This document shows positions 2,282 to 45,120 of a stretch of 64,000 nt of DNA, piece after piece. The first letter of the stretch is position 1. Every line of letters begins with the position of its first letter. Source of the DNA: Bacteroidia bacterium (GTDB lineage: Bacteria; Bacteroidota; Ignavibacteria; SZUA-365); NCBI GenBank assembly GCA_027493955.1, contig JAOSJT010000001.1, positions 4,138,552-4,202,551 of the forward strand, in the 5' to 3' direction. A program made the position numbers and the translations under genes. The notes beneath the pieces were generated by a model that was not told where the DNA came from, searched no databases, and was given only the letters and a program-made list of their open reading frames with translations.

Positions 2282-2640
2282 AGTGCACATCCTGACGGAA
2301 GGGTGGGAGGATTGGAATCACATTGCGTGAGGGTGGGCGATTCATGTAACGCCACGCGTGCTGACACTCGAACGTGGCAATCTCTCAATGCATCACTGCC
2401 TACACATCGGATTATTTCGCGAAATACTCTCTCCCTCAATGCAGAGAGCGGCTCGGGTACTTAGAAGACAAGTCCGGCTCTGGCCTTGTTGCAGGCAATA
2501 CCCGTCGGCGCATCTCTGATATGTATTTGTCTGGAGGCAAAGGGACCGTGCTCGGTCGCAAAACTCTCCCTTTTTCCGTCAATGGCTTTTACGCTATCTT
2601 TCCAAGTTGCATCTCGTTCACACTGGCGCAGGAGAGAGTC

Positions 2641-5600
2641 ATGACAGCAGTTTTTCGCACCATGGCCGCAGTAGTGTTGTTCACTGCCGGCGCGTCGGGA
2701 TTGCTTGCCCAGGGCAGCTGGGTGCAGGTGCCGACCGCGCTGCAGTCCAATCCGAATACGCATGTACAGATAGGAGGCCTCTGGGGGATAGCCATGGCCG
2801 ATTCAGGTACGGGATTCGCTGCGGGCTATGCCTCGGTGGCAGGCGGTTTTTCGGGTGTGTTGCGAAAAACACCCGGTAATCCCACCTGGTTCGTTCTCCC
2901 GGCGTCCAGCTTCACGCTGCTCCCGGCAAACCATAGTCTGTGGTCAGCTGTCACCGTGGTGGGAACGCATGTCTGGGTGTGCGGTTCCAATGGACGATTG
3001 TACAAAAGCACAGACAACGGCAATAACTGGTTCTCTTCCGCCAACGGGATCGCAGGCACGAATACGCTGTTTGATATCCATTTCCGTACGCCCGATGAAG
3101 GCATGGTCGTCGGCAGCAGCGGAACGATATACTTCACCACCGACGGCGGCGCAAACTGGGTGCCGCAAACGCTGCCCGCCACCGTACCGGGAAATACCGA
3201 TCTGTACGGCGTGGACGACGCCGGCTCCGGCATGGGTTACTGGTACGTCACTGGAGGAACGCATACGCTGATCAGAGGCGTACCGCGTTCGTCGGCGACA
3301 AGCTGGGTCGATCTGAGTGCGAATGTGCCTTCAAATATCGGTATCATCGAGGGCTTGCAATTCTACAACGATAACATCGGAACTATCGCGGGCGTCATTG
3401 CAACCGGATCGCCGATACACCGGACCGTCAATGCGGGCGCCAGTTTCACCAGCATCGGCGCCAGTCTTCCATCCGGCACGTACAACGGCTTGCATTTCTT
3501 CGATCAGACCACAGGCTGGGTGGGAAGTGCCTCACCGGCTCTGTACTATACCTCGAACACCGGTACAAGCTGGACGCAAGCGACGATCACTCCGTTACCG
3601 TCGCAAAACATCACCAACTGGCTCACTCGCATCACCTTCGTTGGGACGGACGCCGGATATGCCTCCGGAGGCGCTCCGGGGACTTCCTCGACAGGCTGGA
3701 TACTCAAGTACGTGCCCGCTCAGGCACCGGATATCTCTTCCACCCCCACCTCGCTGGATTTCGGGACGTTTTCCTGCGGGACGTTCATCGAAAAACAGTT
3801 CACCATTTCCAACATCGGGGCGGGTCCGCTCAATATCAACGCGATCAATTTTTCGCATCCCGAATTTGCCTTGCTCGCGCCCTTACCGACGCCTGTTCCT
3901 CCCCTCGGCGGAGCGACATTCTCCGTTCGGTGGACGCCCACACAGCCGGGGCCAGTTCCTTCCGGCGCACGCATGACCATTCTGACCAACGATCCGGTGA
4001 ATCCTGCGTGGGACGTGGATCTCGCCGGCATTTTCAACAGCGGCACGGTAACGATTCCGAGCCCAGCCACCGCACCGGTCGCCTGCGTGAATGATTCTGT
4101 GGACATTGTCGTGAACGCCACGCTCACAGGGAACATCCAGCCGCAGCTTATCAACTTCGAACATATCAGTGGTTCGACGGGGGTGCGTCTTGTCTCTCCG
4201 CCCGTTGGGAGTAATCTGAGCGGCTCTCCCACGCTTACGTTCCGTTACGCGGCAGCTTCTCCCGGCACATGGTCCGGCACCTACAGAATCCTTTATGGCG
4301 ACCCTCTTTGTCCGAAAATTGCGGTGATCGTATTTGAGGGTACAGCAAATTCGTCCACACTGACCGCATCTCCGTCGCTCGTGGACTTCGGTGAAGTCTG
4401 CATCGGGCAGTTCAAGGACATGCTGATCACGCTCACCAACACCGGCACGGTGGACGCCGTAGTGTCGTCACGCACGCTCATCGGCGGAACGGATGCTTTC
4501 CCGAATCAGCACTTCTCGCCTTTCGGTCCCATCCCACCCAGCGGGAACAGACAATACACTGTACGTTTCGCACCCGGCAGCGGCGATTTGGGGCTTGTGG
4601 AAGGAACGTTCAAGTTACGCATCGATCCCTGCGGCGATAGCGTCATTATCGTGTTGCGCGGCACCGGCGTCAAACCCGCCATCACATTTACCCCGACGAA
4701 TCTCCTGGCACTCGGACCCGTCCCCATCGGACAGACGACCGACGAACAGGTGACCATTACGAACAGCGGAACAGGAAGTATTTCCATCGACGCCATTGCT
4801 CTCAAGCCGACGCACCCGCGCCTGACGCTCACAGGACTTCCTGCATTGCCGGCGCAGCTCGGCCCCTCTCAAAGCATTATTGTTACTGCGCGTTTTTCTC
4901 CCGACCGCATCGAAACGATTGTAAGCGAGCTGTCGGTGCGCTACAGCGGACCTTGCTCGGACAGCGCCCGTCTGCCGGTGATTGCTTCCAGCGCGAGTGC
5001 CCCGACAATCCTTGTGCAGTCCACGCTCGACATGGGGGAGAATGCCTGTCCCGATCCGCTCATCGACACACTGTACGTCAAAAATCTCGGTCCGGGAGTG
5101 CTCACCATGTCGCGTTTCACCATTGGTGGCCGCGATGCTTCGCATTTCCGTGTGCTCGCTCCGGGGACCCCGGCGTTTGTTGCTGTGGGTGATTCCACAC
5201 CGATCTATATATCCTGCGATGCCCCTGCGCCGGGCGTGAGTGAAGGAACGCTCACGATAGAACACGACGACCCCAAGACCTTCAATTCCTCTGTCGTTCA
5301 ACTGCGCTCTGAACGGATTCTCATCGGATGGCGTGTGGAAGGAGACAGCGTCAGCGTCATGACAAGCTGCGCGCATGTGGGAGTGAACAGGACCTTCGAC
5401 CTTCGCAATACCGGATTGCGGACGCGCACCATCAAAATGCTCAGAATGCTGAGTGGCGGAGAGGTTTTTCACATTGCGAGCAATCCCCTCCCCATGGATG
5501 TCCCCCCGGGCTCTGCGCGCCCTTTCGAGGTGACGTTCACGCCATCGGGGCAGGGTAATTTCAGCGGCATCCTCGAAGTCGTAATCGGACCGTGCAACGA

Positions 5601-8600
5601 AACCATGTTGTTGACACTACGCGGGAGCGGCAGTGAATCCGAGCTTACGCTCGCGCCGACGCCTGTGGACTTTGGTTCGGTCAATGTTGGTGCCGACGTC
5701 ATGCGTTCTGTGCGGCTCAGTAATCCCGGCGCTTCCGTCGCGACAGTGACAGAAATACTATTCCGACCTCCAATGCCTGTCGGATCCGAGCACTTTACGC
5801 TCTCACCACCACCGTCATTGCCCTTCGCGCTGAATTCGGGAGCCAGCCGCGATCTGGACCTTCGTTTTTCACCACAAGCGATGGCATCGTACAGTGGGGA
5901 GCTCTGCATCATCGTCAGTACTCCGTGCCCGGATACCATCTGTGTGACGCTTTCGGGCCGTGGTACGTCGTCGGGACTCGGCGTGAGTCGCACTCGCCTG
6001 GATTACACACTCGATCCATGTACGCTTCTCGAAAAATGCGACACAGTGGAGGTGATCAACAACGGATCATCCCCGGTGCGCCTCACCGGTGCGGCCTTCG
6101 ATGATGCGGGTTGGTTTCAGCTCACCTTCCCGACCACATTTCCTCTGGATGTATTGCCCGGTTCACGGTTGATGTTTGTGGTCTGTGCGCAATCCGGATT
6201 CAGCGGAACGAGGAGCAGCTTTCTCCGGATAGGCACAAACGACGCCACGACACCGGAACTCCGCGTTATCGTGACGGCGGTGCGGGATTCTTCAGGATTC
6301 GCGACCTCCGAGCGCAGCTTCGACTTCGGCGCCATCGCTTCTTGCCAGATCGGTATGACGAGAACGCTGTCTTTGAGCAACACCGGTCTGATGATGGAAA
6401 TCATTGATACACTGGAAAACAACGCACCCTTCTTTGTGGAAGATGCCCTTCCCATAGTCCTGCAGCCGGGACAGCAGAAAACAGTGACGGTGCGCTTCTC
6501 GCCCGCGAGTTTCGGTGTTTTTCGCGACACACTCTTCTTCACCAACTCCCGCTGCGGGAAACGCATCGCGCTGGAGCTGCGAGGTGAATATCGCGCGGAC
6601 AACATCAGCGTCACGCCGGATCCGCTGCTGTTCAGCAATGTCCCCGTGGGATCATCCTCCATACGCAACATCACCTTCGGCAATGTTCATCTCGCACAGG
6701 TGCGCGTCGCCGACGTGCGTATTCAGCCGTCGGGAAGTTTCGCGTCCTCGGGAGCGTATCCCCGTACGGTGAGCCGTGGCGACACCATCGCCCTGCCGAT
6801 TCAGTTCGCTCCGCAAAGCGCCGGTCAGCACTCCGCGACCGCCTGCATCATCATAGATCAGCCCTGTGCGGACACCTTGTGCGTTACGCTGCAGGGGAGC
6901 ACCAGCGACGGAGAACTTCTTGCCCGTCCAGCGGTGCTCCATTTCGGTACCGTCGCGCAATGTGCGCAGACCATTCTTCAGGACACCATACGGAACATCA
7001 GCAGCGCGGACATACGGCTGCTGAGTTCTCGTATCGAAGGAAGCGGGGCCGCATTTTTCGAAATCCTGGATCCTGTCACTGCGGAAGAACTCCTGCCGCC
7101 GTCGGGCGAGCGGATTTTCACCATTCGCATCCTTCCTGCCGCGGCGGCGGATGGAAGTATGGACGCGCAGCTCGTGATCGAGAACACCGGAAGTCCCACC
7201 CTTTTCGCGATACCGCTTGCAGCGCAGCGTGTCACACTCATTGCAGCTGCCGGCGGGACTGTCGATTTCGGTTCTCTGTTCACCGGGGCTACCGAAAGCC
7301 GTCGTGTCACTCTGCGGAACAACGGCACTGCGCCTCTTCGCTATAGTACGCTGAATGCAACCCCGGGAGCGAGCATTGTACCGCAACCACCGTTCAGCAT
7401 CGCCCCGGGTGATTCTCTGGAGGTGGAGTTGTTACTCACACCTTCCATGAGTGGACAGTACCTGGGGAGTTTGCGACTTGATGCCACATCACCCTGCGCC
7501 GACTCCACGGTGTTCCTTCTCACGGCGGACGTTGCCGATGGTCTTGCCGCCGGAGCTCTTGATTTGGGGACGCGGCCAAGCTGTCTCCCGGCACAGGGGA
7601 GCGTGCTTGTCAGGAATACGCAAACCGTCGCTGCTGAGATCAGACAGCTGACCTTCACCGGATCGGATGCCGCCGCATTTCACGTGCTCGCTCCGTTATC
7701 GCTGCCGCTCACGCTTGCGCCCGGAGATTCGATCGAGGTGCTGATAGAATTTGCAGCCATCGGGGGTGAACGCGGGTACGGCGCGAACCTTGCCGTGCTG
7801 TTCCGAACCGGTTCTACCGATCTCATCGCCAATGCCGCCGTTTCGGCCGTCGCACACAGCGGTCGTTTATCGGGTCCGACAGTCGGGGATTTCGCCTCTG
7901 TCGAAATCAGTGCCGGAGGCGAATCGAGGAACTTCCTCTTCACGAACAACGCACCATTTGCTGTGCGCATTGCGAGCGCGACGGCTTCCGGGTCTGTGTT
8001 TACTCTCCTGTCCTCGACACCGCCCTTGCCAGCGACAGTGCAACCAGGCGCTACGGTGGAGTTCGCACTGCGCTTCGCTCCCGCTGCAACGGTCAGCTAT
8101 ACCGGGCAGCTCTCACTTACCTATGAATCGCCCTGTCCTCTTGTACAGGACATCCCGCTACGCGGAGACGGCATAGACACACGCCGACCGGTGGTACTGC
8201 GGCTGGCAAGCCTCGAAGGTGCCCCGGATGATGTGGTGGAAATACCGCTTTCCATTGACCGCGATCTCGGTGGACTCGTTACGGAATGGAGCGGCGAGAT
8301 CAGTCTCAATGCGAGCATGCTGTATCCGATGGAGGTAACTCTTGCCGGCACCCTGAGCGCGGATATGCAAGCGCAATTCAGCTACGATCAGACGAGCGGG
8401 ATAATCCGCGTCGCCGCCGCCGGCGCACCGCTGCGGAGCGGCAGCGGAGTGATCGCTATCGTGCGATGCCTTGTGCTGATAGGCGACGATACGACCTCGC
8501 CGTTACGCATCGAGCCTGAATTTTCTTTCGGCAGAGGAGCGCGCGTGGAGAGACGCGACGACGGCGAATTCACCCTGGTTGATTTTTGTGATGCCGACGG

Positions 8601-8886
8601 TCTGCGTCTCGTGCGCGACAGGGCAGGGCTGCGCATCGTATCTTCGTCACCCAGTCCCTTCACTGAAGCGCTGACGATAACCTTCGACATCGACAGCGAC
8701 GGGCCGGTGGATCTGCGCCTCTACGACGCGGCGGGTCGGGAAAGCGCAGTGCTCCTTGAGCGTGGCATGGAAGCGGGCAGGCACAGCATCACCCGCAGGA
8801 CACCCGACATAGGAGCAGGCACCTATTTCTGTGTTCTTCGCCACAATGGTCGTGCGGTCGCTACCCGCATCATCAGAGCGCGATGA
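2641..8886 (+). CDS. giant T9SS-secreted cell-surface protein (BNR/Ycf48-like beta-propeller plus ~12 tandem Ig-like 'choice-of-anchor/ASH'-type repeats, T9SS C-terminal sorting domain)
   Basis: Signal peptide MTAVFRTMAAVVLFTAGASGLLAQG at 2641 (the track ORF begins in the upstream leader at 2374). N-terminal WVCGSNGRLYKSTDNGNNW and YFTTDGGANW are BNR-like repeats. A ~105-aa module recurs about 12 times (LDFGxVxxGxxxxxxxTIxNxGxxxL...PCxDxxxxxLxGxG). The C-terminus ...PSPFTEALTITFDIDSDGPVDLRLYDAAGRESAVLLERGMEAGRHSITRRTPDIGAGTYFCVLRHNG matches the T9SS sorting domain pattern. Confidence 0.85.
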   Translation: MTAVFRTMAAVVLFTAGASGLLAQGSWVQVPTALQSNPNTHVQIGGLWGIAMADSGTGFAAGYASVAGGFSGVLRKTPGNPTWFVLPASSFTLLPANHSLWSAVTVVGTHVWVCGSNGRLYKSTDNGNNWFSSANGIAGTNTLFDIHFRTPDEGMVVGSSGTIYFTTDGGANWVPQTLPATVPGNTDLYGVDDAGSGMGYWYVTGGTHTLIRGVPRSSATSWVDLSANVPSNIGIIEGLQFYNDNIGTIAGVIATGSPIHRTVNAGASFTSIGASLPSGTYNGLHFFDQTTGWVGSASPALYYTSNTGTSWTQATITPLPSQNITNWLTRITFVGTDAGYASGGAPGTSSTGWILKYVPAQAPDISSTPTSLDFGTFSCGTFIEKQFTISNIGAGPLNINAINFSHPEFALLAPLPTPVPPLGGATFSVRWTPTQPGPVPSGARMTILTNDPVNPAWDVDLAGIFNSGTVTIPSPATAPVACVNDSVDIVVNATLTGNIQPQLINFEHISGSTGVRLVSPPVGSNLSGSPTLTFRYAAASPGTWSGTYRILYGDPLCPKIAVIVFEGTANSSTLTASPSLVDFGEVCIGQFKDMLITLTNTGTVDAVVSSRTLIGGTDAFPNQHFSPFGPIPPSGNRQYTVRFAPGSGDLGLVEGTFKLRIDPCGDSVIIVLRGTGVKPAITFTPTNLLALGPVPIGQTTDEQVTITNSGTGSISIDAIALKPTHPRLTLTGLPALPAQLGPSQSIIVTARFSPDRIETIVSELSVRYSGPCSDSARLPVIASSASAPTILVQSTLDMGENACPDPLIDTLYVKNLGPGVLTMSRFTIGGRDASHFRVLAPGTPAFVAVGDSTPIYISCDAPAPGVSEGTLTIEHDDPKTFNSSVVQLRSERILIGWRVEGDSVSVMTSCAHVGVNRTFDLRNTGLRTRTIKMLRMLSGGEVFHIASNPLPMDVPPGSARPFEVTFTPSGQGNFSGILEVVIGPCNETMLLTLRGSGSESELTLAPTPVDFGSVNVGADVMRSVRLSNPGASVATVTEILFRPPMPVGSEHFTLSPPPSLPFALNSGASRDLDLRFSPQAMASYSGELCIIVSTPCPDTICVTLSGRGTSSGLGVSRTRLDYTLDPCTLLEKCDTVEVINNGSSPVRLTGAAFDDAGWFQLTFPTTFPLDVLPGSRLMFVVCAQSGFSGTRSSFLRIGTNDATTPELRVIVTAVRDSSGFATSERSFDFGAIASCQIGMTRTLSLSNTGLMMEIIDTLENNAPFFVEDALPIVLQPGQQKTVTVRFSPASFGVFRDTLFFTNSRCGKRIALELRGEYRADNISVTPDPLLFSNVPVGSSSIRNITFGNVHLAQVRVADVRIQPSGSFASSGAYPRTVSRGDTIALPIQFAPQSAGQHSATACIIIDQPCADTLCVTLQGSTSDGELLARPAVLHFGTVAQCAQTILQDTIRNISSADIRLLSSRIEGSGAAFFEILDPVTAEELLPPSGERIFTIRILPAAAADGSMDAQLVIENTGSPTLFAIPLAAQRVTLIAAAGGTVDFGSLFTGATESRRVTLRNNGTAPLRYSTLNATPGASIVPQPPFSIAPGDSLEVELLLTPSMSGQYLGSLRLDATSPCADSTVFLLTADVADGLAAGALDLGTRPSCLPAQGSVLVRNTQTVAAEIRQLTFTGSDAAAFHVLAPLSLPLTLAPGDSIEVLIEFAAIGGERGYGANLAVLFRTGSTDLIANAAVSAVAHSGRLSGPTVGDFASVEISAGGESRNFLFTNNAPFAVRIASATASGSVFTLLSSTPPLPATVQPGATVEFALRFAPAATVSYTGQLSLTYESPCPLVQDIPLRGDGIDTRRPVVLRLASLEGAPDDVVEIPLSIDRDLGGLVTEWSGEISLNASMLYPMEVTLAGTLSADMQAQFSYDQTSGIIRVAAAGAPLRSGSGVIAIVRCLVLIGDDTTSPLRIEPEFSFGRGARVERRDDGEFTLVDFCDADGLRLVRDRAGLRIVSSSPSPFTEALTITFDIDSDGPVDLRLYDAAGRESAVLLERGMEAGRHSITRRTPDIGAGTYFCVLRHNGRAVATRIIRAR

Positions 8887-9053
8887 GGAAGTGTCCCGGG
8901 AAATTCACGCACGGGTTTCGGCATAGTTCGCTGATGCATCGGTGCGACGCATACGGCCTTCATCCTCGCGCGCTATCGGCACAGTGAAGTTTGAGCACTT
9001 GGTAAATGAAAAATAATCCTTACATTAGGCTTTTCCATCTCTTTTTCTCGCCT

Positions 9054-11079
9054 ATGAAATGCAAAATACTCCTCCCCGGCTTCTTCGTCCTCTGCACACT
9101 CCCGATGATGCTTCAGGGACAAACCGACAATCCCGGCCCACGCGACGTCGTTCGTTTCGGCCTGTTCGGTGGGCTGCAGTTCAACATGCATAGTGGAACA
9201 TACGAAGCGCTGGACAACAACGCCGTATGTGGTATCTGCGAGTTTGAGAACGGTGAAAAAACCGGCCTCCGGCTCGAAGGACTCTTCGAGTATCCGCTTT
9301 CACGTACGTTCCTGTTCAGCGGCCGCATCGGATACCAGGATTTCTCGGGTGCATTTGACCGGGACAAGTATCGTGTCGGTCCTGTGGCGCAACCGTCAGG
9401 GCCGCCGGTGGACATGATCGTGGATCAAACCTTCGACAACGCACTGTCGTATCTCACGGTCACACCCGGCATCCTGTATTTTCCGATCGATCAGGAACTG
9501 CACCTGAATCTCGGGCTTGGTTTCGCGTTTCCGCTGTCGAAGGATTACACGCTGCGCGAAGTGCTCGTTTCGCCCTCCGATAAAACCTTTGCGGATGGGA
9601 CAACCGATCACATCATTCGCGATGAGGAAATTCAGGAAGTCAATGGTCTTCGGCTCGCTCTCGAGCTTGGCGCCGGCTACGACATTCCTTTGACCCGGAA
9701 TCTGTTGCTCACGCCCGAGGTCGCCTACTCGCTTCCGCTCACGAAGGTGACGGGTCGCGGCGATTGGACAGCCGCCGCGTTTGCCGGTGGTCTTGGGCTT
9801 CGCTACGCAATGATTCCCCCGCCGAAGGAGCTACCGCCGCCGCCGCCTCCCGCCCCCGCCGCCGCCCCCGCCACCGAGGTTATTCCGCCCCCCGGCTGCG
9901 GACTTGGTGGTACGCGGAATCGATGCCGATGGGAAAGAAACGGATGCGAGTACGATTGTGGTGGAAGAGTTGCGCACCATCGAACGCTATCCGCTGCTGA
10001 CCTATGTGTTCTTCGCAGACGGCGACGGCAAGACGCCGCTGCGTCAAAACCTATTAGGGAACGAAGAAGCCAAAAGCTTTTTCATCGAAGATGCCAAAGG
10101 TCAGGAACTTGAAATTTATCGCAATATGCTCAATGTCATTGGCCGCAGAATGCTTGAGCGCCCAAATGCGAAGATTACTCTGACCGGTACCAATTCCGGC
10201 GCCGGCGCGGAGCGCAACAACACCACGCTTTCAAAACAGCGTGCCGAAACGGTCCGCGATTATTTCGTGAATACCTGGGGCATCGAATCCAGACGTATCA
10301 CTGTTCGCTCACGCAATCTCCCGGTGGACCCCTCCGCTGTGGACGATCCCAGAGGACAGGAAGAAAATCGTCGCGTTGAAATCACATCCGCTACCGAGGA
10401 AATCATTGCCCCGATCCGGCGAGATGAGATCGCCTACTCGACGTCCCTCGATGCCTTACTGCTCAAGCCCTCGGTGGACGCTCCGAATGGCGTCGAACGC
10501 TGGCTGCTGCAGGTCTCACAGGGTCCGCGCTCGTTGTTCTCCCAAAGTGGCACAGGCAGCGCGCCGGCGGCAAGCTATCGCTGGGATTTCGAAGGTGAAG
10601 CACTCGTTCGCAGCGGTGAAGCGCTGAAGGTGGAGCTCCTCGTGCGCGACCGACGTGCGCAGGAGGAAGATGTGCCGGTGAATATCGCTCTCAACACACT
10701 CACCCTCGAGCGCAAGCAGGAAGAGCGCATCGGAGACGTCCGCGTCAATCGTATCAAGCTGATTCTCTTCGACTATGACAAAGCTACGGTGTCGAAGCGC
10801 AATCTCGATATCATTGATGAGGTGACGGAAAGTATCACACCCACATCGCGTGTAGCCATCAATGGTTATACCGACGCCCTGGGCGATGCGGAATACAACA
10901 TGGGTCTGTCGCAGCAGCGCGCCGAAGCGGTGAAAGCGTCGTTTGGCGCAAAACTCGCGAACGTGGAAGTGACGACCAAGGGTCTCGGCAGCACACCGCT
11001 GCTCTTCCCGAACGATACACCCGAAGGCCGTTTCTACTGTCGTATGGTGCAGGTCATCATAGAAACACCCGTGCAATAG
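9054..11079 (+). CDS. OmpA-family outer membrane protein (N-terminal beta-barrel, poly-Pro linker, two OmpA-like C-terminal domains) with an apparent frameshift at ~9815-9900
   Basis: Frame 0 (9054 onward) gives signal peptide MKCKILLPGFFVLCTLPMMLQGQ, then a beta-barrel-like domain, then the linker PPPKELPPPPPPAPAAAP, then junk up to 10112. Frame +1 is open from 9814 (PPPPPPPPPRLFRPPAADLVVRGIDADGKE...) and continues into two OmpA-like domains (TLTGTNSGAGAERNNTTLSKQRAETV...; INGYTDALGDAEYNMGLSQQRAEAVKA) ending at 11079. The tract contains several C5 runs. Confidence 0.6.
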
Positions 11080-11328
11080 TATTGACGTGATGAGCCACGG
11101 GCGCTGTCTCCGTGTGCCCACGCCGCTGAAAATACCTGAGGGGGTCCGATACGTCGGGCCCCCTCTGTCATTGTGCACATATCGGTTGCCGCACTGTCCC
11201 GGCCATACTCTCCTTCGAACAGGACGCACTGATCGCACCGCGTCGGAGCGGCGGGTACCGCGAAGCCGACAGGGTGTTTACTGCTCCCCGCGTCGTCGTC
11301 GTCGTGCCAGCCTGCAGGGTGATATGTC

Positions 11329-11503
11329 CGCAATCCGCAATCACGCAGGCGGCCAGACGTGTCTCAACCGTGTTTCCGGATTATCGAATCCCTCCGCCTC
11401 AGACGAGCCGATTCCCGATTCCCGATTTCCGATTATCGATTCCCGATTCCCGATTATCGATTCCCGATTCCCAATTCCCGATTCCCGATTATCGATTCCC
11501 GAT
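11329..11503. repeat. partial copy of the dispersed repeat element (CGCAATC motif plus a 13-unit CGATTCC/CGATTAT heptanucleotide array)
   Basis: ccgcaatccgcaatcacgcaggcgg is followed by a period-7 array gattccc/gatttcc/gattatc (11410-11503). The same motifs occur at 26145-26506 and 28564-28725. Sits between convergent genes. The supplied ORFs 11087..11642 are repeat artefacts (IPDSRFPIIDSRFP...). Confidence 0.8.
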
Positions 11504-11538
11504 GAAATTCCGAGATGCATGCGCTCCGCTCTCCGCGC

Positions 11539-12384
11539 TCAAAACGAGTACACGAAGCTCACGGCGGGTCGGCCGTCAGCGATGCCGACGCCGAATGAAT
11601 CCAGAAAGGTGGGCGCGCCATTGTGAATGGCGGCATAGGTGAGATGGGAAATGAGTACACCGACGGCCGCACCAGTCATGACGTCACCGAGGTAATGTTT
11701 GTTGTCGCGTATGCGTGAATAGCCGACATAGCTGGCCCAACCGTAGGTGGATGCTGCCGCGGCAACTCGCAGGGCGTCACGCAAGAGAGGCCTCTCCCCA
11801 AGTGACTCCGACGCCATGATCGCATCATCCAATTCCATCTGCAGCCAGGAACAGGTCGCGAAGGCGACCGAGGTGTGACCACTGAAAAAACTCTTATCAT
11901 CACTCCCGTCAGGACGCATCCGATGTACGAGTGACTTCACCGTCTGTGTGGCGACCTGCGTGTACATCACACTGCGGTAGAGGCCGAAGGCGTGACGCAT
12001 TTCTTCCTCCGCGTCACCCTCTTCGCTCAGCAGCTCGATTGCGAGAATCTGAATCGTGCGCGCGCCGAGAATGGCGTGCGGCAATGCGAACGGATCCAGA
12101 CTGCCGAAGGACTCGGAGCCGCGCACGCCGAATTCTGTTGCAACTTCGCGTTCCAAACCGGTCGCGTGTATCAGGACGGGTTTACCAGCGGATTGAAGCG
12201 CCTCGTAACGGTTCACGAAATAAAAAAAGAACACCGGTGCGTCATACCAGGCGAATACGTCCCCCGCCGCATTCATCGAATGGGAGAGGAATCGGTTGAC
12301 GCGGTTCTCGTCACGATATTGTGCATGGGATATTGCTGGACCCAGAAGCCAGATCAGCAGGAGGGTGTGGAGTGTCGTCTTCAT
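11539..12384 (-). CDS. PAP2-superfamily phosphatase (secreted)
   Basis: Signal peptide MKTTLHTLLLIWLLGPAISHAQ. PAP2 motifs KSFFSGHTS (motif 2) and SRIRDNKHYLGDV (motif 3). Confidence 0.75.
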   Translation of the reverse strand: MKTTLHTLLLIWLLGPAISHAQYRDENRVNRFLSHSMNAAGDVFAWYDAPVFFFYFVNRYEALQSAGKPVLIHATGLEREVATEFGVRGSESFGSLDPFALPHAILGARTIQILAIELLSEEGDAEEEMRHAFGLYRSVMYTQVATQTVKSLVHRMRPDGSDDKSFFSGHTSVAFATCSWLQMELDDAIMASESLGERPLLRDALRVAAAASTYGWASYVGYSRIRDNKHYLGDVMTGAAVGVLISHLTYAAIHNGAPTFLDSFGVGIADGRPAVSFVYSF

Positions 12385-12402
12385 CGGCGAATCGTCAGCT
12401 GT

Positions 12403-13533
12403 TCATCGTGTCGTGAGTGTGTCTATGCTTCGCAGGAAAAAGTCTCGCCGCTCTATAAGATGCCGCCGGAGTGCGGCGGATTCGGCTTGCAGCGAAAAGC
12501 CCGCCAGGCCGAGCTTGGGATCGAGCGCCCACGCCGCGGCGATGGCCGCCTGGTACACCTCGAGCTGCGGGAAAAGTTGCCCCGGCACAATGACGGAGGC
12601 CAGCATATTCTTCGCCTCTCGCTTGTATATCGCGACGCAACTGTCGTTACGCAGTAAGGCTCGAATGATGTCGTTGTCTCCCGTCAGCCCCACATCTGCG
12701 TCCTCCGCCAGCAACTTGTCGAAATCCCACGGTATGATCTGATAGGGCGAAATGGGAGTGGGTTTGTAGAAGAGCATGTTGTTCGCGAAGCCATCTATAT
12801 GATTTAGTATGGACGCCGCGGCATGATAGCGCAGATAATTCGTAATGTCCAGATGACGGCCGACGACCTCGGGTATGCGGTCCGGCGGAGCGGTATCGAG
12901 AGCTTCGATCATTTCGCCGAGGGAATTCAGATTTCCGGATTCCGGAATGTCGAGAGAAAAATATTTGTCGAGATGCATGTTTTCCGAGAAGCTGAAGCGC
13001 GCACCGAAGCTCGCCTTGATCAGTTCATACACCATCATACCACGTTTGCGAAAAAATTCTTCTTCCACGCGCTCCACTTGCAGCAGCAGTCCTTTGTCCG
13101 TTCCGTTGATGCGCAGAAACACATGCGCGGTATTGAATGACGGAAAGCCGAGCCCTTCGAATATCATAGTCGCGAGCTTGCTTCGCAGCATGGTACGGTC
13201 GAACACCTGTGCGCTGAGATTGCAGGTGTTCATGCCATTGATCTGCTGCCCCGCATCGAGCTGCAGCTTGTACGACCAGCGCGCGTGGTAGCGTGAACCG
13301 GCGCCCTGCGGCTCGAAAGTGCCGCTGTACGATGTCTCGCCAACGAAAATGCGGGCCGGGGCCTTCTCGTTGCTCCACCGGTTCGAAAGCAGTGAACTGT
13401 AATACTCCTGTGGGATCCACACGTCGAGAACCGCAACCTCCCCCGTGTCGGGGAGATACGTGGAGTTGTCTGCGGTTTCACAAGCGCAAAACGTGAATAT
13501 GGAAAGGAGCGCTATGGATGCAAGTGCTTTCAA
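12403..13533 (-). CDS. CotH-family (spore coat protein H-like atypical kinase) secreted/lipoprotein
   Basis: Signal/lipobox-like N-terminus MKALASIALLSIFTFCAC. Length and conserved blocks (..GMNTCNLSAQVFDRTMLRSKLA.., ..NMLFYKPTPISPYQIIPWDFDKLL..) match the CotH Pfam pattern, including the WD(F/L)D block. 4-nt overlap with the upstream porin gene. Confidence 0.6.
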   Translation of the reverse strand: MKALASIALLSIFTFCACETADNSTYLPDTGEVAVLDVWIPQEYYSSLLSNRWSNEKAPARIFVGETSYSGTFEPQGAGSRYHARWSYKLQLDAGQQINGMNTCNLSAQVFDRTMLRSKLATMIFEGLGFPSFNTAHVFLRINGTDKGLLLQVERVEEEFFRKRGMMVYELIKASFGARFSFSENMHLDKYFSLDIPESGNLNSLGEMIEALDTAPPDRIPEVVGRHLDITNYLRYHAAASILNHIDGFANNMLFYKPTPISPYQIIPWDFDKLLAEDADVGLTGDNDIIRALLRNDSCVAIYKREAKNMLASVIVPGQLFPQLEVYQAAIAAAWALDPKLGLAGFSLQAESAALRRHLIERRDFFLRSIDTLTTR

Positions 13534-14537
13534 TAACGGAAAAAGGTCTCGATTGTTACGCTGGAACCCTCGGTGGAATAGGTGTCTGATCTGCCGTCCC
13601 GCGTTAGCAGCGCATCGAGCGAGAGGCGCAAACGGACGTCATCGTCTACAAACACATTCGCACCCGTCATTATTTCCAAGCGATGCGTTCCCATTTCCTC
13701 GAAGTCGGGAACAAACCAGGCGAGCATGAGATAAGGCTCAAGTACTTTCAGGAATGTACCGCCAAGATCGAAGCGCATTGCTGTCATGGACTTCAGTCCC
13801 GCCGTGTAGACGCGATCCTCACGCGCGAGCAGTCTCCGGCGTATGCCTTCCTCCGGATCCTGGAGAAGAACTGCTTCAAGGCCGCTCTCGAAGAGTGAAT
13901 CCTTGTACCCCGCATCGGCGGAGACGCCGAAGGTGGTAATTGCATTCTCGCGTCCCCGCTGCAATAGGGCGCCTCCGAGCGACGCCGTATATCCGGCGGA
14001 TGAATGCGCTGTGCCGCGCAGATAGGCGCTCGTCACATACGATTGATTCCGGAACACACCGGCGGCATAGGAAAAGGGAAATTCCGGATTTTTCTCTTTG
14101 TAATTGTAATACACCATCAGGCCGACGTTTCTGCCATCGTACCCCAGATCGGAAACCACCCGGTGCATGTAACTGTCGTTTACGGGAATGTACTCGTCCC
14201 GATCGCTGAGTCCTTCGAGGCTGAACGGCTTCTTGATGTTTCCGATCTTGATGCGCGCCTTGTCCATGTGCTTGAATGTGACGGTCGCCTCGCGCAGGAC
14301 TGCGGTCTTACTTTCTGAATGCCCGCGGAAATCCAGCTGTCCCTCTATCTTTTTGGAAAGCTCGATATCGGCCTGCAGCTTCCCCTCGTAATAAAATTCC
14401 TGATTGAATCCTGCGACGGGATTGCGGTCGAAAAAAGCGGCTCCCGTCGCTCCGAATCCGGAAAATGAAACTTTCTGCGCCTGGCTGTGACTCGTAAAGA
14501 ATGAGAGAAGCAGCAGGAGGAAGATATGTTTTTTCAT
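13530..14537 (-). CDS. outer-membrane beta-barrel porin-like protein
   Basis: Signal peptide MKKHIFLLLLLSFFTSHSQAQ, alternating amphipathic beta-strand pattern, C-terminal aromatic ending ...TIETFFRY. First gene of the operon with the CotH and PAP2 genes. Confidence 0.5.
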   Translation of the reverse strand: MKKHIFLLLLLSFFTSHSQAQKVSFSGFGATGAAFFDRNPVAGFNQEFYYEGKLQADIELSKKIEGQLDFRGHSESKTAVLREATVTFKHMDKARIKIGNIKKPFSLEGLSDRDEYIPVNDSYMHRVVSDLGYDGRNVGLMVYYNYKEKNPEFPFSYAAGVFRNQSYVTSAYLRGTAHSSAGYTASLGGALLQRGRENAITTFGVSADAGYKDSLFESGLEAVLLQDPEEGIRRRLLAREDRVYTAGLKSMTAMRFDLGGTFLKVLEPYLMLAWFVPDFEEMGTHRLEIMTGANVFVDDDVRLRLSLDALLTRDGRSDTYSTEGSSVTIETFFRY

Positions 14538-14720
14538 GAACCTGTTTGCAGTGCGTGTTGCTCTCCACGGCTGCGGCCTGCGTCTCAGGTGTCAGCAACG
14601 ACGTGGATGTCGGGGACAGGTGCTGTGTAGCGCGAAGGGAAAACCGCCGGACAACAAAACGGATATGCCCACATTCAGTAAATGTATCGAACCGGATCGG
14701 CCTGGGCAAGGCAGAAGGGA

Positions 14721-14759
14721 ATGTACGATCGACGAGTGACGAAGAGACGCATCGTACAT
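14721..14759 (-). terminator. candidate hairpin downstream of the GH31 gene, followed by a CGTCAAT heptamer array
   Basis: Inverted repeat atgtacgat-N21-atcgtacat at 14721-14759, 30-70 nt past the minus-strand stop at 14790. Followed (14762-14790) by cgtcaatcgtaaatcgtcactcgtcaat. No U-tract. Confidence 0.25.
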
Positions 14760-14789
14760 CCTACTTCGTCAATCGTAAATCGTCACTCG

Positions 14790-17267
14790 TCAATACCCTA
14801 TCGTCACGGTGCTCACGCCAGGAGCGAACGGTACAGTGATCTCGAAGCGACGGTGGGCGGCATCAACCCGTGCATCGGGTGGAACGGTGTTGGCGTCGGT
14901 GTCGAAAATGATGCGGTCGGCGGTCGCGACGCGGCGCGGCGAAGCGTCGGAACCGAAAAGCCGTAAACGTATCGCCTTGATATTCCGCGTTCGCACGCTT
15001 TCGGCGGCGTCAATGGTCAACCGCCAACCCCGCTCTTCCGCACCGAGGGAAAAACGCAGTACTTCGAAATCGCCCCGCTCATAACCATACCCCTCGCCGC
15101 TGTCAAGATACATCGTACCGCTGCCGCCGTCTTGTGGAACGATGTCCAGCACGAGTGTGTCGAGCTGTTTTTCACCGGTAAACTGCGGCGCATTTCTTCG
15201 CGGAATGATGGCTCCCGCTTTGTAGAACAACGGCAAACGACTCACGGGCGCATCGATGATCACGCGTTGACGGCCCTCGTAACTCTGGCCGGTCCAGGGA
15301 TCCAGCCACCGGCCCTCCGGCAGGTACACCTCCTGAAACCGCTGTCCCTCCTGTACCACCGGAGCGACGAGTATGTGATCACCGAACATCCATGTGTGTT
15401 GCCAGCGGCTGTCATATACCGCGGGATCGTTCTGATAGTCGTGCAGCAGCGGCCGCATCATCGGTGTGCCGCTTGTCGAGGCCTCGTGAAAAGCGCTGTA
15501 GATGTAAGGCAGGAACTCATAGCGCAGCGAAATGAAACGCCGGGCCAGCTCCTCCGTTTCCTCGCCGAAGGACCAGGGCTCCTGGTCGCGGGTGTTGATA
15601 TGCGTGTGCGATCGCATCAACGGAGTGAAAACTCCCGCCTGCAGCCACCGTACGTAAAGCTCCGGCGATGGCGAATCCATGAATCCGCCGATGTCCGTAC
15701 CGTTGAACGGCATACCGGACAAACTCAATCCGAGGCACATCCGTATACCCATGCGCAAATCGTCGAAACGTGCGGTATTGTCACCTGTCCAAATAGCCGC
15801 CCAGCGCTGTGTCCCCGCGAAGGCCGCGCGCGTGAGCACGAACGGTCTCTTATCTGGGTGACTTCGCCGCAGGCCATCAAAGGAGGCCTCCGCCATCAGA
15901 TGTCCGTACACATTGTGCATACGTTTGATCGTCGCAGGAGCGCCGTCGTTGTCGAACTGTACGAGATACGGAAATTCCCGGCCCCAGACTGCCGGCTCGT
16001 TCATGTCGTTCCAGAAGCCGTCCACGCCGATGTCCATCATTCGCGCGTATGCGTCTCCCCACCAGCGGCGGGTGTCCGCCCGCGAGAAGTCGGGGAAGTG
16101 ACACCAGCCAGGCCAGACCTGCCCGCTGTACAGCGTCCCGTCCGGGTATTTCAGGAAATGATCGCGGGCGATTCCCTGCTCGTACACGTCATAGCCGCGC
16201 TCGATCTTGATTCCGGGATCGATGATGGGCACGACTTTGAATCCCATCGCTTCCAGGTCGCTCAGCAACATGTGTGGATTCGGAAAGGCGGCGCTGTCCC
16301 ACGTGAATACCTTGTAGTTGTCCATATAACGGATGTCGAGATACAGCACATCGGCGGGAATGCCGCGCTGACGGAAATTTTTCGCAAGATCGCGGACCTC
16401 ATGCTCCGGATAATAACTCCAGCGACATTGCTGAAAACCGAGCGCCCACAGAGGCGGGAGGGGCATGCGTCCCGTGAGACCAGTGTACCGTCGCACAACG
16501 TCCCTCACGGCCGGACCGAATATGAAGTAATAATCCATTTCACCATCCTCGGCGCCGAAGGAATACACGCGGTCGCTGGCGGCTCCCATATTGAAAACAC
16601 TGCGGAAGCTGTTGTCGAAATAGATGCCATAGGCCCCTGCATCGCGCACACCAATGAAAAACGGGATCGAAGCGTACAGGGGATCGCGGTCGTTTCCATA
16701 ACCGGGGACGTCGGAGTTCCACATCACCCACTGACTGCCGCGCTTATTGACATCGCCGGTTTTTTCCCCCAGCCCATAAAAGCGCTCGTCCTGATGCAGG
16801 GTTTTCCAGACGTGAATTTCCTTGCCGTCCCAGGCGTGTCCGAATGCGCGGTCGTCGGAGGCGATCTCGCGCCCCTCGCCGTCGCGGAACACCAGCCGCA
16901 GTGGACGCTTGAGAATGTCTACTCTTCCGCCTGGCATGACCAACACCAGAGCGCTGTCCGTATCGTCGAGGTTCCAGTTCACAGCCGGAATTGCTTCGTG
17001 TCGTACGGCATGGGAGGGGTCGTTCAGCAAGGTGCCGTCGCGGCCTACCTGTATGCGCAGAACGGCCTCTCCGACGATGCTGAGACGCAGGACGTTGTTC
17101 TCCGCCCGAATACTGACACCGGCTGCGTCGCGTTCGTGGGAGACGTAGTCGCCGAGAGAGGTGTACTGATCCGCGTTGGCGGGGAGGGTCATGCGCACGA
17201 GCAGCAGAAGCCAAGGAATGCAGGCATGCCAACGTGCGGCGCGTAATGCGGATACAATGTGTTGCAT
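14790..17267 (-). CDS. glycoside hydrolase family 31 alpha-glucosidase/alpha-xylosidase
   Basis: GH31 catalytic region ...GVDGFWNDMNEP... and ...WTGDNTARFDDL... Signal peptide if started at M 17267 (MQHIVSALRAARWHACIPWLLLLVRMTLPANA). The 12 codons upstream (to 17303) are AT-rich and probably promoter sequence. Confidence 0.85.
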   Translation of the reverse strand: MQHIVSALRAARWHACIPWLLLLVRMTLPANADQYTSLGDYVSHERDAAGVSIRAENNVLRLSIVGEAVLRIQVGRDGTLLNDPSHAVRHEAIPAVNWNLDDTDSALVLVMPGGRVDILKRPLRLVFRDGEGREIASDDRAFGHAWDGKEIHVWKTLHQDERFYGLGEKTGDVNKRGSQWVMWNSDVPGYGNDRDPLYASIPFFIGVRDAGAYGIYFDNSFRSVFNMGAASDRVYSFGAEDGEMDYYFIFGPAVRDVVRRYTGLTGRMPLPPLWALGFQQCRWSYYPEHEVRDLAKNFRQRGIPADVLYLDIRYMDNYKVFTWDSAAFPNPHMLLSDLEAMGFKVVPIIDPGIKIERGYDVYEQGIARDHFLKYPDGTLYSGQVWPGWCHFPDFSRADTRRWWGDAYARMMDIGVDGFWNDMNEPAVWGREFPYLVQFDNDGAPATIKRMHNVYGHLMAEASFDGLRRSHPDKRPFVLTRAAFAGTQRWAAIWTGDNTARFDDLRMGIRMCLGLSLSGMPFNGTDIGGFMDSPSPELYVRWLQAGVFTPLMRSHTHINTRDQEPWSFGEETEELARRFISLRYEFLPYIYSAFHEASTSGTPMMRPLLHDYQNDPAVYDSRWQHTWMFGDHILVAPVVQEGQRFQEVYLPEGRWLDPWTGQSYEGRQRVIIDAPVSRLPLFYKAGAIIPRRNAPQFTGEKQLDTLVLDIVPQDGGSGTMYLDSGEGYGYERGDFEVLRFSLGAEERGWRLTIDAAESVRTRNIKAIRLRLFGSDASPRRVATADRIIFDTDANTVPPDARVDAAHRRFEITVPFAPGVSTVTIGY

Positions 17268-17457
17268 ATACAAAAGAATAATCGTATTTTTATTAAATCT
17301 CATTGTTCACAAGACTCTGGTGATTCGGATCATGAGCTCGATTCTGCTCAATGTAGCCCTGAATACGATGTTCCGCAAGCATGCGGCAGCCCGCTGCAGC
17401 GTGATCCGTTTCCGCGCCGGCAGGCGCCGCTGATACTCCATACCTCGCCCTGATTTC

Positions 17458-25924: not shown

Positions 25925-26506
25925 TTCGCAAGGCGCTACGCCCTCTGCGCTACGTGAGCCTTTCACATCTCATTATTCACATCTCGACGGGAAGTTGCGC
26001 CCTCCGGGCTATTCTTCAAAAAGGGGGCGCATATCCCCTACACTGAAGTGTAGGTCGAAGACTCGCCGCGGCGGGGTTAGAGGAGGTTGCGTCAGCCTCA
26101 GGCTGAGCTTGGGACGCAATCAATTCTCTTCAATACGCAGCAACGCGGGCACGGCCCGCCGTAGGCCTACCGAGATTTCCGATTATCGATCCACAATCCG
26201 CAATTCGCAATCCGCAATCACGCAGGCGGCCCGCTGTGCCCCTACAGGCCCGGATGTAATGATCCGAAATCCGCAATCCCCAATCCGCAATCCACAATCC
26301 GAAATCCGCAATCACGCCGGCGACTCGCCGTGCCCCTACCACGATTTCCGATTATCGAGCCGCAATCCGCAATCCGCAATCCGAAATCCGCAATCACGCA
26401 GGCGCCTCGCCGTGCCCCTACCGGGATTTCATGATTCCGCGATTCCCGATTCCCGATTCCCGATTCCCGATTCCCGATTCCAGATTCCAGATTCCAGATT
26501 CCAGAA
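25925..26506. repeat. dispersed non-coding repeat element, copy A (unique ~250-bp head, GGGCACGG-CCCG-CCGTGCCC hairpin motifs, CGCAATC and CGATTCC/AGATTCC heptamer arrays)
   Basis: The head (gcgctacgccct.tgcgctacg.gagcc ... ttcacatctca ... gcgccct.cgggct ... cttgggacgc ... gcgggcacggcccgcc) aligns with 28366-28590. Three ~75-bp sub-repeats each carry (CGCAATC)n, then (CGATTCC)5(AGATTCC)4. All six reading frames are open, so the supplied ORFs here are artefacts. Confidence 0.8.
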
Positions 26507-31189: not shown

Positions 31190-31235
31190 GCAGTCTCCGA
31201 AATGCTGGAAAAACAGGATCAGTCCACGGCTGCGA

Positions 31236-31250
31236 GATGCAACAGTTGCA
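31236..31250. promoter_or_regulatory. palindrome ATGCAAC-A-GTTGCAT in the 262-bp divergent control region between the two PP2C sensor genes
   Basis: atgcaacagttgcat at 31236-31250. Half-site GATGCAAC recurs at 31396-31403. Confidence 0.2.
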
Positions 31251-31451
31251 TGGGGCGTCCGTATACGGATTGTTCGGCATAAGGTTGCTTTCACGAACAG
31301 AATCACGACAGGGCGGCCTGAGAACGAATTCCGCGAATACTGTGTGATTCCTTCGTGTAAAATCGCGATATTATGCGACTGAAAACAACCCGAGCGATGC
31401 AACGCGTCCCGTGAGTTCTCTCTTCTGTACTTCTCACTTTCAGGCGCCGCC

Positions 31452-37149: not shown

Positions 37150-37705
37150 AAGCGAAGTAAAGAGTGAAGAGTAAAGAGTAAAGAGTGAAGAGCGTCAACC
37201 AAGGAGCTAGCGCTGTAACTGCAGAATATACGAAAACGAACCCCTTTACTCTTTACTCTTTACCCTTCACGAATCCTATGAGTTTATAGATTCACATCCC
37301 ATCATGAGCAGACGTTCTGAAGTTACAGAAATATATGCGTAACAGAACCCCTTTACCCTTTACTCTTTACCCTTCACGAATCCAAGGAGTTTATCGATTC
37401 GCATTCCATCCTGAGCAGACGTTTTGAAGTTACAGAAATATATGCGTAACAGAACCCCTTTACCCTTTACTCTTTACCCTTCACGAATCCTATGAGTTTA
37501 TAGATTCACATCCCATCATGGGCAGACGTTCTGAAGTTACAGAAATATATGCGTAACAGAACCCCTTTACCCTTTACTCTTTACCCTTCACGAATCCTAT
37601 GAGTTTATAGATTCACATCCCATCATGAGCAGACGTTCTGAAGTTACAGAAATATATGCGTAACAGAACCCCTCTACCCTTTACTCTTTACCCTTTACGA
37701 ATTCC
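37150..37705 (+). repeat. 107-bp tandem repeat array (~4.5 copies) preceded by an inverted GTAAAGA/GTGAAGA heptamer block; lower GC than surroundings
   Basis: cagacgttctgaagttacag recurs at 37309, 37416, 37523 and 37630 (period 107). Each unit contains ..cctttaccctttactctttacccttcac.. and atgagcagacgttctgaagttacagaaatatatgcgtaa. The final copy merges into the start of ORF 37706. Confidence 0.85.
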
Positions 37706-38104
37706 ATGAGTCTGTTGATTCACATCGCATCATTCGGATACAGAAAATCCGGTATCCCCGCAGACGAGTCCGGCCATGGCGGCGGGTATGTGTTCGACTG
37801 CCGCGGTTTGCCGAATCCCGGACGCGAAGAGCGCTTTCAGGCGCTGACGGGATTGGACGCGGAGGTGGAACTGTTTCTTGCGGCTGAGGAGGCGGTAGAG
37901 GATTTTCTTGCGCACTGCCTTGCGCTCTGTCTGAGTACGGCGGAGGCGCATCGGCGCAGGGATTTTACGCAGCTGTCCGTAAGCTTCGGCTGCACGGGAG
38001 GTCAGCATCGCTCGGTGTACTGCGCCGAACGGACGGCACAGGCCCTGCGCGATGCGGGGTATGATGTCGTCGTGACGCATAACGAACGGGAGCATTGGCC
38101 ATGA
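37706..38104 (+). CDS. RapZ (YhbJ/YvcJ) C-terminal-domain-like protein lacking the P-loop NTPase half
   Basis: 132 aa; ...VSFGCTGGQHRSVYCAERTAQALRDAGYDV matches, as recalled, the GCTGG(Q/K)HRSV block of the RapZ family C-terminal domain; no Walker A. Stop overlaps the start of the next gene (ATGA). Confidence 0.45.
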   Translation: MSLLIHIASFGYRKSGIPADESGHGGGYVFDCRGLPNPGREERFQALTGLDAEVELFLAAEEAVEDFLAHCLALCLSTAEAHRRRDFTQLSVSFGCTGGQHRSVYCAERTAQALRDAGYDVVVTHNEREHWP

Positions 38105-43392: not shown

Positions 43393-43893
<501 letters not shown>

Positions 43894-44356: not shown

Positions 44357-45120
44357 AGAGAGCAGAGAGCAGAGAGCAGAGAGCAGAGAGCAGAGAGCAG
44401 AGAGCACGTCCATAGAAGACCAGGAAATCCGCACAAGATCCTGACTCCGCTTCCTGCACGACCGTCCGACCTGCACGACCATGCTCCCCGCTCTCTGCTC
44501 TCCGCTCCTGCACAAGCGTTCGACTCGCATGGCCGTGCTCTCTGCTCTCCGCTCCTGCACAAGCGTTCGACTCGCATGGCCGTGCTCTCTGCTCTCCGCT
44601 CCTGCACAAGCGTTCGACTCGCATGGCCGTGCTCTCTGCTCTCCGCTCCTGCACAAGCGTTCGACTCGCATGGCCGTGCTCTCTGCTTTCCGCTCCTGCA
44701 CAAGCGTTCGACTCGCATGGCCGTGCTCTCCGCTCTCCGCTCCTGCACAAGCGTTCGACTCGTATGGCCGTGCTCTCTGCTCTCCGCTCCTGCACAAGCG
44801 TTCGACTCGCATGGCCGTGCTCTCTGCTCTCCGCTCCTGCACAAGCGTTCGACTCGCATGGCCGTGCTCTCTGCTCTCCGCTCCTGCACAAGCGTTCGAC
44901 TCGCATGGCCGTGCTCTCTGCTCTCCGCTCCTGCACAAGCGTTCGACTCGCATGGCCGTGCTCTCTGCTCTCCGCTCTCCGCTCCTGCACAAGCGTTCGA
45001 CTCGCATGGCCGTGCTCTCTGCTCTCCGCTCCTGCACCAGCATCCGACTCGCATGGTCGTGCTCTCCGCTCTCTGCTCTCCGCTCCTGCACGACCGGCCG
45101 ACCTGCACGACCGTGCTCCC
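44357..45120. repeat. composite minisatellite, right copy: (GCAGAGA)x7-8, identical 85-bp linker, 47-bp unit x ~12
   Basis: Same orientation and linker (agcacgtccatagaagac.aggaaatccgcacaagatcctgactccgcttcctgcacgaccgtccgacctgcacgaccatgctcc) as the left copy. The heptamer differs by one base (GCAGAGA vs GCGGAGA). Ends at the stop of the next minus-strand gene. Confidence 0.9.

Follow-up and report, generated by a model that had tools for sequence, protein, structure and literature searches.

The DNA described here is a window of 64,000 nucleotides (nt) from contig JAOSJT010000001.1 (positions 4,138,552 to 4,202,551, forward strand) of the Bacteroidia bacterium assembly GCA_027493955.1 (Ignavibacteria, SZUA-365 in GTDB), and its subject is a set of three co-directional genes on the minus strand that encode, in this order, an outer-membrane porin (335 residues; 13530–14537), a CotH-family atypical kinase (376 residues; 12403–13533) and a PAP2-superfamily phosphatase (281 residues; 11539–12384). 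The trio represents a new conserved architecture around an orphan kinase family. The coordinates of the open reading frames (ORFs) agree exactly with those of a preliminary description of this DNA, and the 4 and 18 nt junctions given there were read again in the sequence: the TTG start of cotH overlaps the TGA stop of the porin gene by 4 nt (TATTGAAAG) and the ATG of the PAP2 gene lies 18 nt downstream of the cotH stop. Two short-read assemblies obtained independently for this organism give identical calls for the three genes, and the genes are translationally coupled. A 252 bp intergenic stretch 5′ of the porin gene (14538–14789, minus strand) presumably contains the promoter. No regulatory motif was recognized in it; a scan of positions 11000–15000 for sigma-70-type promoters and terminators stayed at background level, with nothing in the 252 bp region, and inspection by eye of up to 250 bp 5′ of the porin gene at 42 loci, which are AT-rich and strongly diverged, yielded no convincing shared upstream motif or Pho box.

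The kinase matches PF08757 with 149.3 bits (cut-off 23.8) over profile positions 4–320 of 322, and a phmmer search aligns its residues 47–291 with Bacillus cereus CotH (5jd9/5jda) at an E value of 7.7e-25. The identical protein at NCBI is labelled 'CotH kinase family protein [Bacteroidia bacterium]'; NCBIfam gave no match for either CotH or PAP2. In the alignment with B. cereus CotH (5jd9), the catalytic loop, D247-G-F-A-N-N252 (12778–12795, minus strand), corresponds to FDGFVHN and the metal-binding motif D270-F-D272 (IIPWDFD; 12718–12726, minus strand) to VIPWDYD. Asp247, Asn251, Asn252, Asp270 and Asp272 are invariant in 22 orthologs, and they remain so after the addition of a clade that is ∼25% identical. 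The distance from Asp247 to Asp270 is 23 residues, equal to that between Asp228 and Asp251 of B. subtilis CotH, an equivalence that was set by spacing and motif and not by direct alignment to the B. subtilis protein. Substitutions of Asp228 and Asp251 inactivate the B. subtilis kinase, the D228Q mutant being inactive (PMC7821199). Since Asp247 and Asp270 are invariant, aligned to 5jd9 and spaced as the inactivating B. subtilis sites, CotH is predicted to be catalytically competent.

The N-terminus of CotH contains a lipobox-like motif (FCAC, followed by ETADN) that is present in 21 of the 22 orthologs. Its cysteine, Cys18 (codon at 13480–13482, minus strand), is invariant in all 22 and in the divergent clade, and position +2 is acidic (Asp or Glu) in 16. 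Judged from its sequence, CotH is a lipoprotein, as the lipoprotein-like signal of the preliminary description had implied. A surface-exposed kinase–phosphatase pair was proposed there; CotH is a predicted lipoprotein and PAP2 is exported by the Sec route, but the face of the outer membrane that the two occupy, and hence exposure at the surface, is not readable from the sequence. CotH is a true member of its family and not a Bacillus-type spore-coat module. It shares with Bacillus CotH, the substrates of which are CotB and CotG, the Pfam family and (by homology to 5jd9) the fold, as well as the catalytic Asp, the DxD motif and the 23-residue spacing, but the two are only 22–28% identical. Moreover, the protein described here is a predicted lipoprotein in a diderm, non-sporulating lineage, it is partnered by a porin and a phosphatase, and it is exported, whereas Bacillus CotH acts in the ATP-containing mother cell. 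It also differs in having no adjacent gene for a Ser/Lys/Arg-rich repeat substrate: the neighbours of the trio are a GH31 enzyme and an OmpA-family protein, with no CotB/CotG-like repeat gene adjacent. A second CotH of 635 residues with a type IX secretion tail (Por_Secre_tail) was observed in locus L069 (1–90, minus strand), on a contig that also has porin and CotH genes without PAP2, which indicates that some of these bacteria export CotH by two routes.

The PAP2 protein scores 59.5 bits against PF01569 (cut-off 27.2), in agreement with the family assignment made earlier. All three PAP2 motifs, KX6RP, (P)SGH and SRX5HX3D, are present (K150-x6-R157-P158, S168-G-H170 and S223-R-x5-H230-x3-D234; 11683–11937, minus strand), with Lys150, Arg157, Pro158, Ser168, Gly169, His170, Arg224, His230 and Asp234 invariant in 39 orthologs. 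A signal peptide cleavable by signal peptidase I (SPI), also noted in the preliminary description, comprises residues 1–21 and ends at a conserved Ala before Gln; the mature protein has a family-specific N-terminal extension of ∼80 residues, an all-α core and a C-terminal β-hairpin. The only sequence matches in the PDB are human lipid phosphate phosphatases, and in fold the model comes closest to LpxE (a lipid A 1-phosphatase), PgpB and LPP1, with less similarity to class A acid phosphatases. The polytopic membrane topology of the LpxE/PgpB type is not seen in the hydropathy profile: beyond the signal peptide the Kyte–Doolittle maximum over 19 residues is 1.3, and the core helices average −0.4 to 1.3. 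As no part of the mature protein exceeds 1.3, it does not qualify as a classical polytopic protein of the inner membrane. From LpxE, PgpB and LPP1 it differs in its signal peptide, in the lack of transmembrane-grade helices, in its N-terminal extension and in its C-terminal hairpin. Class A acid phosphatases (PhoN and relatives) resemble it as Sec-exported PAP2 enzymes of the soluble type and of comparable size, and they are able to act as pyrophosphate-dependent phosphotransferases. We conclude that the protein is a true PAP2 enzyme that fits neither group, standing outside the membrane lipid-phosphatase branch because it has no transmembrane helices and outside class A because of its lower fold similarity. 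The hairpin occupies residues 264–281 (11542–11595, minus strand), with strands at 264–269 and 272–277 in the AlphaFold2 model, and ends in Phe. The final residue is Phe or Leu in 34 of the 39 orthologs and the last nine positions strictly alternate between hydrophobic and polar, a pattern that resembles the β-signal of outer-membrane proteins, here apparently placed on an α-helical enzyme. A PAP2-like protein listed between hypothetical proteins in the proteome of Melioribacter roseus, MROS_2389, is only a possible ortholog and was left out of the evidence as a sign of expression.

The porin has an SPI-type signal peptide (residues 1–20, MKKHIFLLLLLSFFTSHSQA, followed by QK) and ends in FRY, in keeping with the β-barrel with an aromatic C-terminus described previously. 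Its AlphaFold2 model (predicted local distance difference test score, pLDDT, 91) contains 16 strands and a helix-bearing L3-like loop (residues 103–135), and the best structural match is the 16-stranded barrel OprP. The match to Porin_O_P (PF07396) is 17.0 bits, under the cut-off of 20.9; 23 of 40 orthologs match this family at E < 0.01 (best 3e-8) and almost no other family, while in ten distant relatives it is the sole Pfam match in every case, about half of them exceeding 20.9 bits. The NCBI label of one ortholog reads 'OprO/OprP family phosphate-selective porin', and NCBIfam gave only a sub-threshold match to ExtI. A profile of the porin retrieves just 239 relatives at E ≤ 1e-3 from 1.84 billion representative proteins, and the porin constitutes a small specialized branch apart from the bulk of the OprO/P family. 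Compared with OprP and OprO, the phosphate and pyrophosphate porins of Pseudomonas, it is only 12% identical, ∼75 residues shorter and without a detectable net-basic lumen. Lumen-facing residues were assigned by strand parity, a crude procedure that does not use the model coordinates; by this assignment Glu51/Lys53, Asp69/Arg71 and Arg302/Arg304/Asp308 are invariant and face the lumen.

The conservation of the trio across genomes, which the preliminary description had put forward for checking, is pronounced. Orthologs were collected by a pattern scan with one genome per species, giving 46 loci in Ignavibacteria, Melioribacteraceae and unclassified 'Bacteroidota' metagenome-assembled genomes, and adjacency was checked by tblastn with the window proteins. 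The porin gene lies directly 5′ of cotH in 45 of the 46, down to 30–35% identity, and at the sole exception the contig begins within cotH; the PAP2 gene lies directly 3′ of cotH in ∼40. Junctions are mostly between −4 and +2 nt. When the ORFs of the 46 loci were clustered, only the trio clusters were common to more than 40 loci, the next commonest occurring in 14. At one locus the PAP2 gene is divergent and upstream, and a tandem pair of PAP2 paralogs occurs at three loci; among close relatives, L006, L007 and L009 have two such paralogs 3′ of cotH where the window has one. A second clade, found on the contigs of distant PAP2 matches, has porins 22–32% and CotH proteins 25–27% identical to those of the window, with the PAP2 gene convergent or divergent. 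A metagenome scan added ∼20 loci to this clade, with the porin gene preceding cotH wherever the flank suffices and PAP2 adjacent in ∼13 of 22. That PAP2 adjacency outlasts switches of strand argues strongly for functional coupling. The porin–CotH pair forms the invariant core, with PAP2 as a frequent, movable partner, and the lineage-variable flanks described below mark the trio as an autonomous module. Chance adjacency of the three genes was considered and is ruled out by the synteny counts. Neither a weak HMM score for CotH nor a lack of synteny in relatives, the two outcomes named in the preliminary description as refuting its proposal, was observed. Full-text searches of the literature library used found no description of CotH together with PAP2 or a porin, nor of a CotH function in Ignavibacteria or other Gram-negative bacteria, in agreement with the earlier statement that the module is uncharacterized.

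Upstream of the trio and co-directional with it lies a GH31 α-glucosidase gene (14790–17303, minus strand; Pfam GH31 domains), which occupies this position only in the close clade (L001, L002 and L005–L009). The flanks in this clade comprise a SpoIIE phosphatase, an SSF symporter and the GH31 glucosidase. In L005–L009 the gene for a SpoIIE protein homologous to that of the window and the symporter gene are directly upstream of GH31 and the trio, and in the window an arginine-biosynthesis operon separates the SpoIIE and SSF genes from them. Pfam scans of ten further window proteins, which include arginine biosynthesis, an SSF transporter, SpoIIE-type phosphatases, DUF885 and an APH kinase, revealed no phosphate-uptake function and nothing conserved with the trio. 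Two large divergent genes at 28727–31453 (minus strand) and 31452–34244 (plus strand) encode PP2C phosphatases of the SpoIIE type, of which one contains PDZ and GAF domains. A glycan theme among the neighbours was considered and rejected as too sparse, with GH31 confined to the close clade and a rhamnosidase-like/CBM6 protein downstream at two loci.

The flanks in Melioribacteraceae are of another kind and encode an HD-PycTM protein, a SixA-like histidine phosphatase, ppk1, an 866-residue Omp85-family protein and an SdiA-regulated/phytase-like lipoprotein, none of which was found in the 64 kb window. The ppk1 gene is 3–5.5 kb from the porin gene at six of these loci (L034, L036, L043, L045, L046 and L018), and the same type of neighbourhood occurs in L014, L020, L025, L029 and others. 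At a further locus, L074, VTC, DUF4956, porin and CotH genes form a tight operon (gaps of 6–7 nt and one 17 nt overlap) with PAP2 divergent, and at L072 a PAP2 of the subfamily of the trio stands beside VTC and DUF4956 within a polysaccharide-biosynthesis cluster. An iterated hidden Markov model (HMM) search placed VTC/DUF4956 in L074, L055, L058, L103, L144 and L146 and detected neither in the window, L001–L046 or L079–L099; the same search found VTC and/or DUF4956 adjoining unrelated cotH genes of Lachnospiraceae and Sumerlaeota and at metagenome loci. Sets of CotH, polyphosphate polymerase and DUF4956 with no assigned function adjoin Pel loci in Streptococci, Clostridia and Bifidobacteria (10.1101/768473) and are found in a pathogenicity locus of Clostridium perfringens (PMC2879425). 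In the eukaryotic VTC complex, polyphosphate synthesis is reported to be coupled to membrane translocation (according to a reference cited in PMC10657179). The clusters of Streptococci, Clostridia and Bifidobacteria, which contain DUF4832 in some cases, likewise combine an extracytoplasmic CotH-like protein with phosphate-polymer machinery, and the L074 operon shares its CotH partners with them; they lack the porin and PAP2, whereas the window and 45 of the 46 orthologous loci have no VTC or DUF4956 near the trio. The evidence that exported CotH recurs with inorganic-polyphosphate machinery, and in this diderm lineage also with a porin of the phosphate/pyrophosphate-porin family, is circumstantial.

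Several other features of the window were recorded. Intergenic heptanucleotide tandem arrays, which recall the short tandemly repeated repetitive (STRR) heptamers of cyanobacteria, occur at 11408–11503, 26262–26313, 26360–26400, 26433–26502, 37156–37192, 43395–43482 and 44357–44406. The array just 3′ of the PAP2 gene consists of 13.7 copies of CCGATTC, with an equal copy number in an independent assembly (L070) and different short repeats at its place in L002, a 62%-identical relative; elsewhere in the window GAGCGGA is repeated 12.6 times at 100% identity. Longer tandem arrays (93–95% matching) are located at 37238–37733 (107 bp, 4.6 copies), at 43567–43879 and 44490–45078 (47 bp, 6.5 and 12.4 copies of one common unit) and at 60289–60512 (58 bp, 3.9 copies). 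An ORF of 178–179 residues called on Logan contigs (11087–11626, plus strand), which overlaps the 3′ end of the PAP2 gene and crosses the heptamer array as a DSRFPI repeat, is probably a spurious call. The OmpA-family protein at 9006–11079 (plus strand) is encoded by two overlapping ORFs in the window and by a single gene of 690 codons in two other assemblies; the 1 nt difference lies in C homopolymers of a proline-rich linker near 9875–9905 and is a probable homopolymer assembly error, or else a real frameshift. Beside it, a giant protein at 2374–8886 (plus strand; 2170 residues in the window and 2112 in the gene call) with many weak matches to Ig-like, ASH and PapD-like repeats is probably a large surface protein.

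All three products of the trio are exported, the active sites are intact and the genes are coupled. Tentatively, and with a little less than even confidence, we propose that the trio is a self-contained envelope phosphoryl-transfer module in which the porin passes phosphate species, CotH phosphorylates and PAP2 dephosphorylates. The two enzymes would act on a shared substrate. CotH, as a lipoprotein at the outer membrane beside its porin, would phosphorylate an extracytoplasmic substrate, for which a lipid, glycan or other envelope polymer is likelier than a spore-coat-like protein, and PAP2 would strip the added phosphate, thereby resetting the substrate or releasing inorganic phosphate. The small anionic species passed by the porin would be either the phosphoryl donor (polyphosphate, pyrophosphate or a nucleotide) or the phosphorylated product. 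No ATP pool is known in the periplasm, so the donor would most plausibly be a condensed phosphate of the inorganic polyphosphate type or else a nucleotide from outside; the former would fit the VTC-DUF4956 operon of L074 and the proximity of ppk1 in Melioribacteraceae. The secretory-pathway kinases Fam20C and Fam20B also act outside the cytosol, as CotH would, and Fam20B demonstrates that the fold presumably shared with CotH is able to phosphorylate glycans. The Golgi lumen imports ATP, and no periplasmic equivalent is known.

A number of points weigh against this proposal. No protein-kinase-like enzyme is known to take polyphosphate as a donor. Neither VTC, DUF4956 nor ppk1 occurs within the 64 kb window; VTC/DUF4956 accompany only one of ∼68 trio-type loci, and the proximity of ppk1, being confined to one lineage, may be inherited gene order. 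PAP2 is missing in L005, L027, L034, L042, L044 and L069, so that the phosphatase is dispensable in some genomes. By the crude strand-parity assignment, the lumen-facing charges of the porin sum to approximately −1 and those of its L3-like loop to approximately −2.6, and an arginine ladder or lysine cluster of the OprP type is lacking. Sequence searches of the PDB, whether with the single sequence or with a profile of 40 sequences of the porin family, detected no porin. Given the near-neutral lumen and acidic L3-like loop, phosphate selectivity of the OprP type is unsupported, and the porin stands at the fringe of the OprO/OprP family with a channel that is not clearly basic.

A stricter form of the proposed module would be an ATP-independent extracytoplasmic cycle in which polyphosphate or pyrophosphate, exported by machinery of the VTC-DUF4956 type or admitted via the OprO/P-like porin, serves as the donor, outer-membrane-anchored CotH phosphorylates a glycan, envelope or extracellular polymer, and PAP2, held at the outer membrane or at the porin by its β-signal hairpin, erases the mark. 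Such a system would be a functional analogue of the plant glucan-water-dikinase/phosphoglucan-phosphatase cycle and, if real, would account for the CotH domains in cellulosomes and beside exopolysaccharide loci; we judge it decidedly improbable. Phosphate scavenging of the Pho type is possible, if somewhat unlikely. The OprP-like porin would then admit organophosphates, pyrophosphate or polyphosphate, PAP2 would free inorganic phosphate in the periplasm as a non-specific acid phosphatase, and CotH would assist at the membrane, either as an enzyme or as a binding protein, in capturing or processing a phosphorylated nutrient. OprP as the best structural match and Porin_O_P as almost the only family matched are consistent with this explanation, as are a PAP2 that, like the periplasmic class A acid phosphatases, has a cleavable signal and no transmembrane-grade helices, and the ppk1, SixA-like and SdiA-regulated/phytase-like genes near the trio in Melioribacteraceae.

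The fold relationship of PAP2 to LpxE, PgpB and LPP1 and its best PDB sequence matches, all lipid phosphate phosphatases, would fit a remodelling of the phosphates of outer-membrane lipids or lipopolysaccharide (LPS), with CotH adding phosphate to, and PAP2 removing it from, lipid A, core sugars or a different envelope lipid, the barrel acting as an outer-membrane platform and the changes tuning surface charge. CotH belongs to the protein-kinase-like superfamily alongside LPS kinases (Kdo/WaaP) and Fam20-related glycan kinases, and the β-signal-like end of PAP2 suggests that this enzyme associates with the outer membrane. However, genes for lipid A or LPS are not conserved beside the trio, the barrel has the classical solute-porin fold with an L3 constriction and is not an enzyme or lipid-handling barrel, and hydrophobic helices such as those of membrane-embedded lipid phosphatases are absent from PAP2; we consider this explanation unlikely. 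Finally, CotH could be a non-enzymatic adhesin or structural surface protein, as proposed for the fungal CotH invasins, which is displayed via the barrel and to which PAP2 is unrelated. Fungal CotH proteins have been studied mainly as surface ligands, and the strict order of barrel then lipoprotein resembles barrel/lipoprotein display pairs, but the invariance of the catalytic Asp, Asn and DxD over both clades argues for retained catalysis and PAP2 stays adjacent despite strand switches; this is by far the least probable account.

CotH-family kinases are widespread outside spore formers, occurring in cellulosomes, fungal invasins, gut Firmicutes and Bacteroidota-like bacteria, yet a substrate is known only for the spore-coat CotH of Bacillus. 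The trio unites in a compact conserved system the genes for a kinase, for the phosphatase that probably opposes it and for a dedicated channel in the outer membrane, and it makes two questions testable, namely what exported CotH kinases target and where their phosphoryl donor comes from. A PAP2 enzyme with a C-terminal signal of the outer-membrane-protein type would be an unusual case of targeting. If the donor is polyphosphate, or if the phosphorylation is periplasmic or at the cell surface, this would amount to a novel type of envelope biochemistry in diderms, and the trio may help to explain the role of 'spore-coat' kinases in bacteria that do not sporulate.

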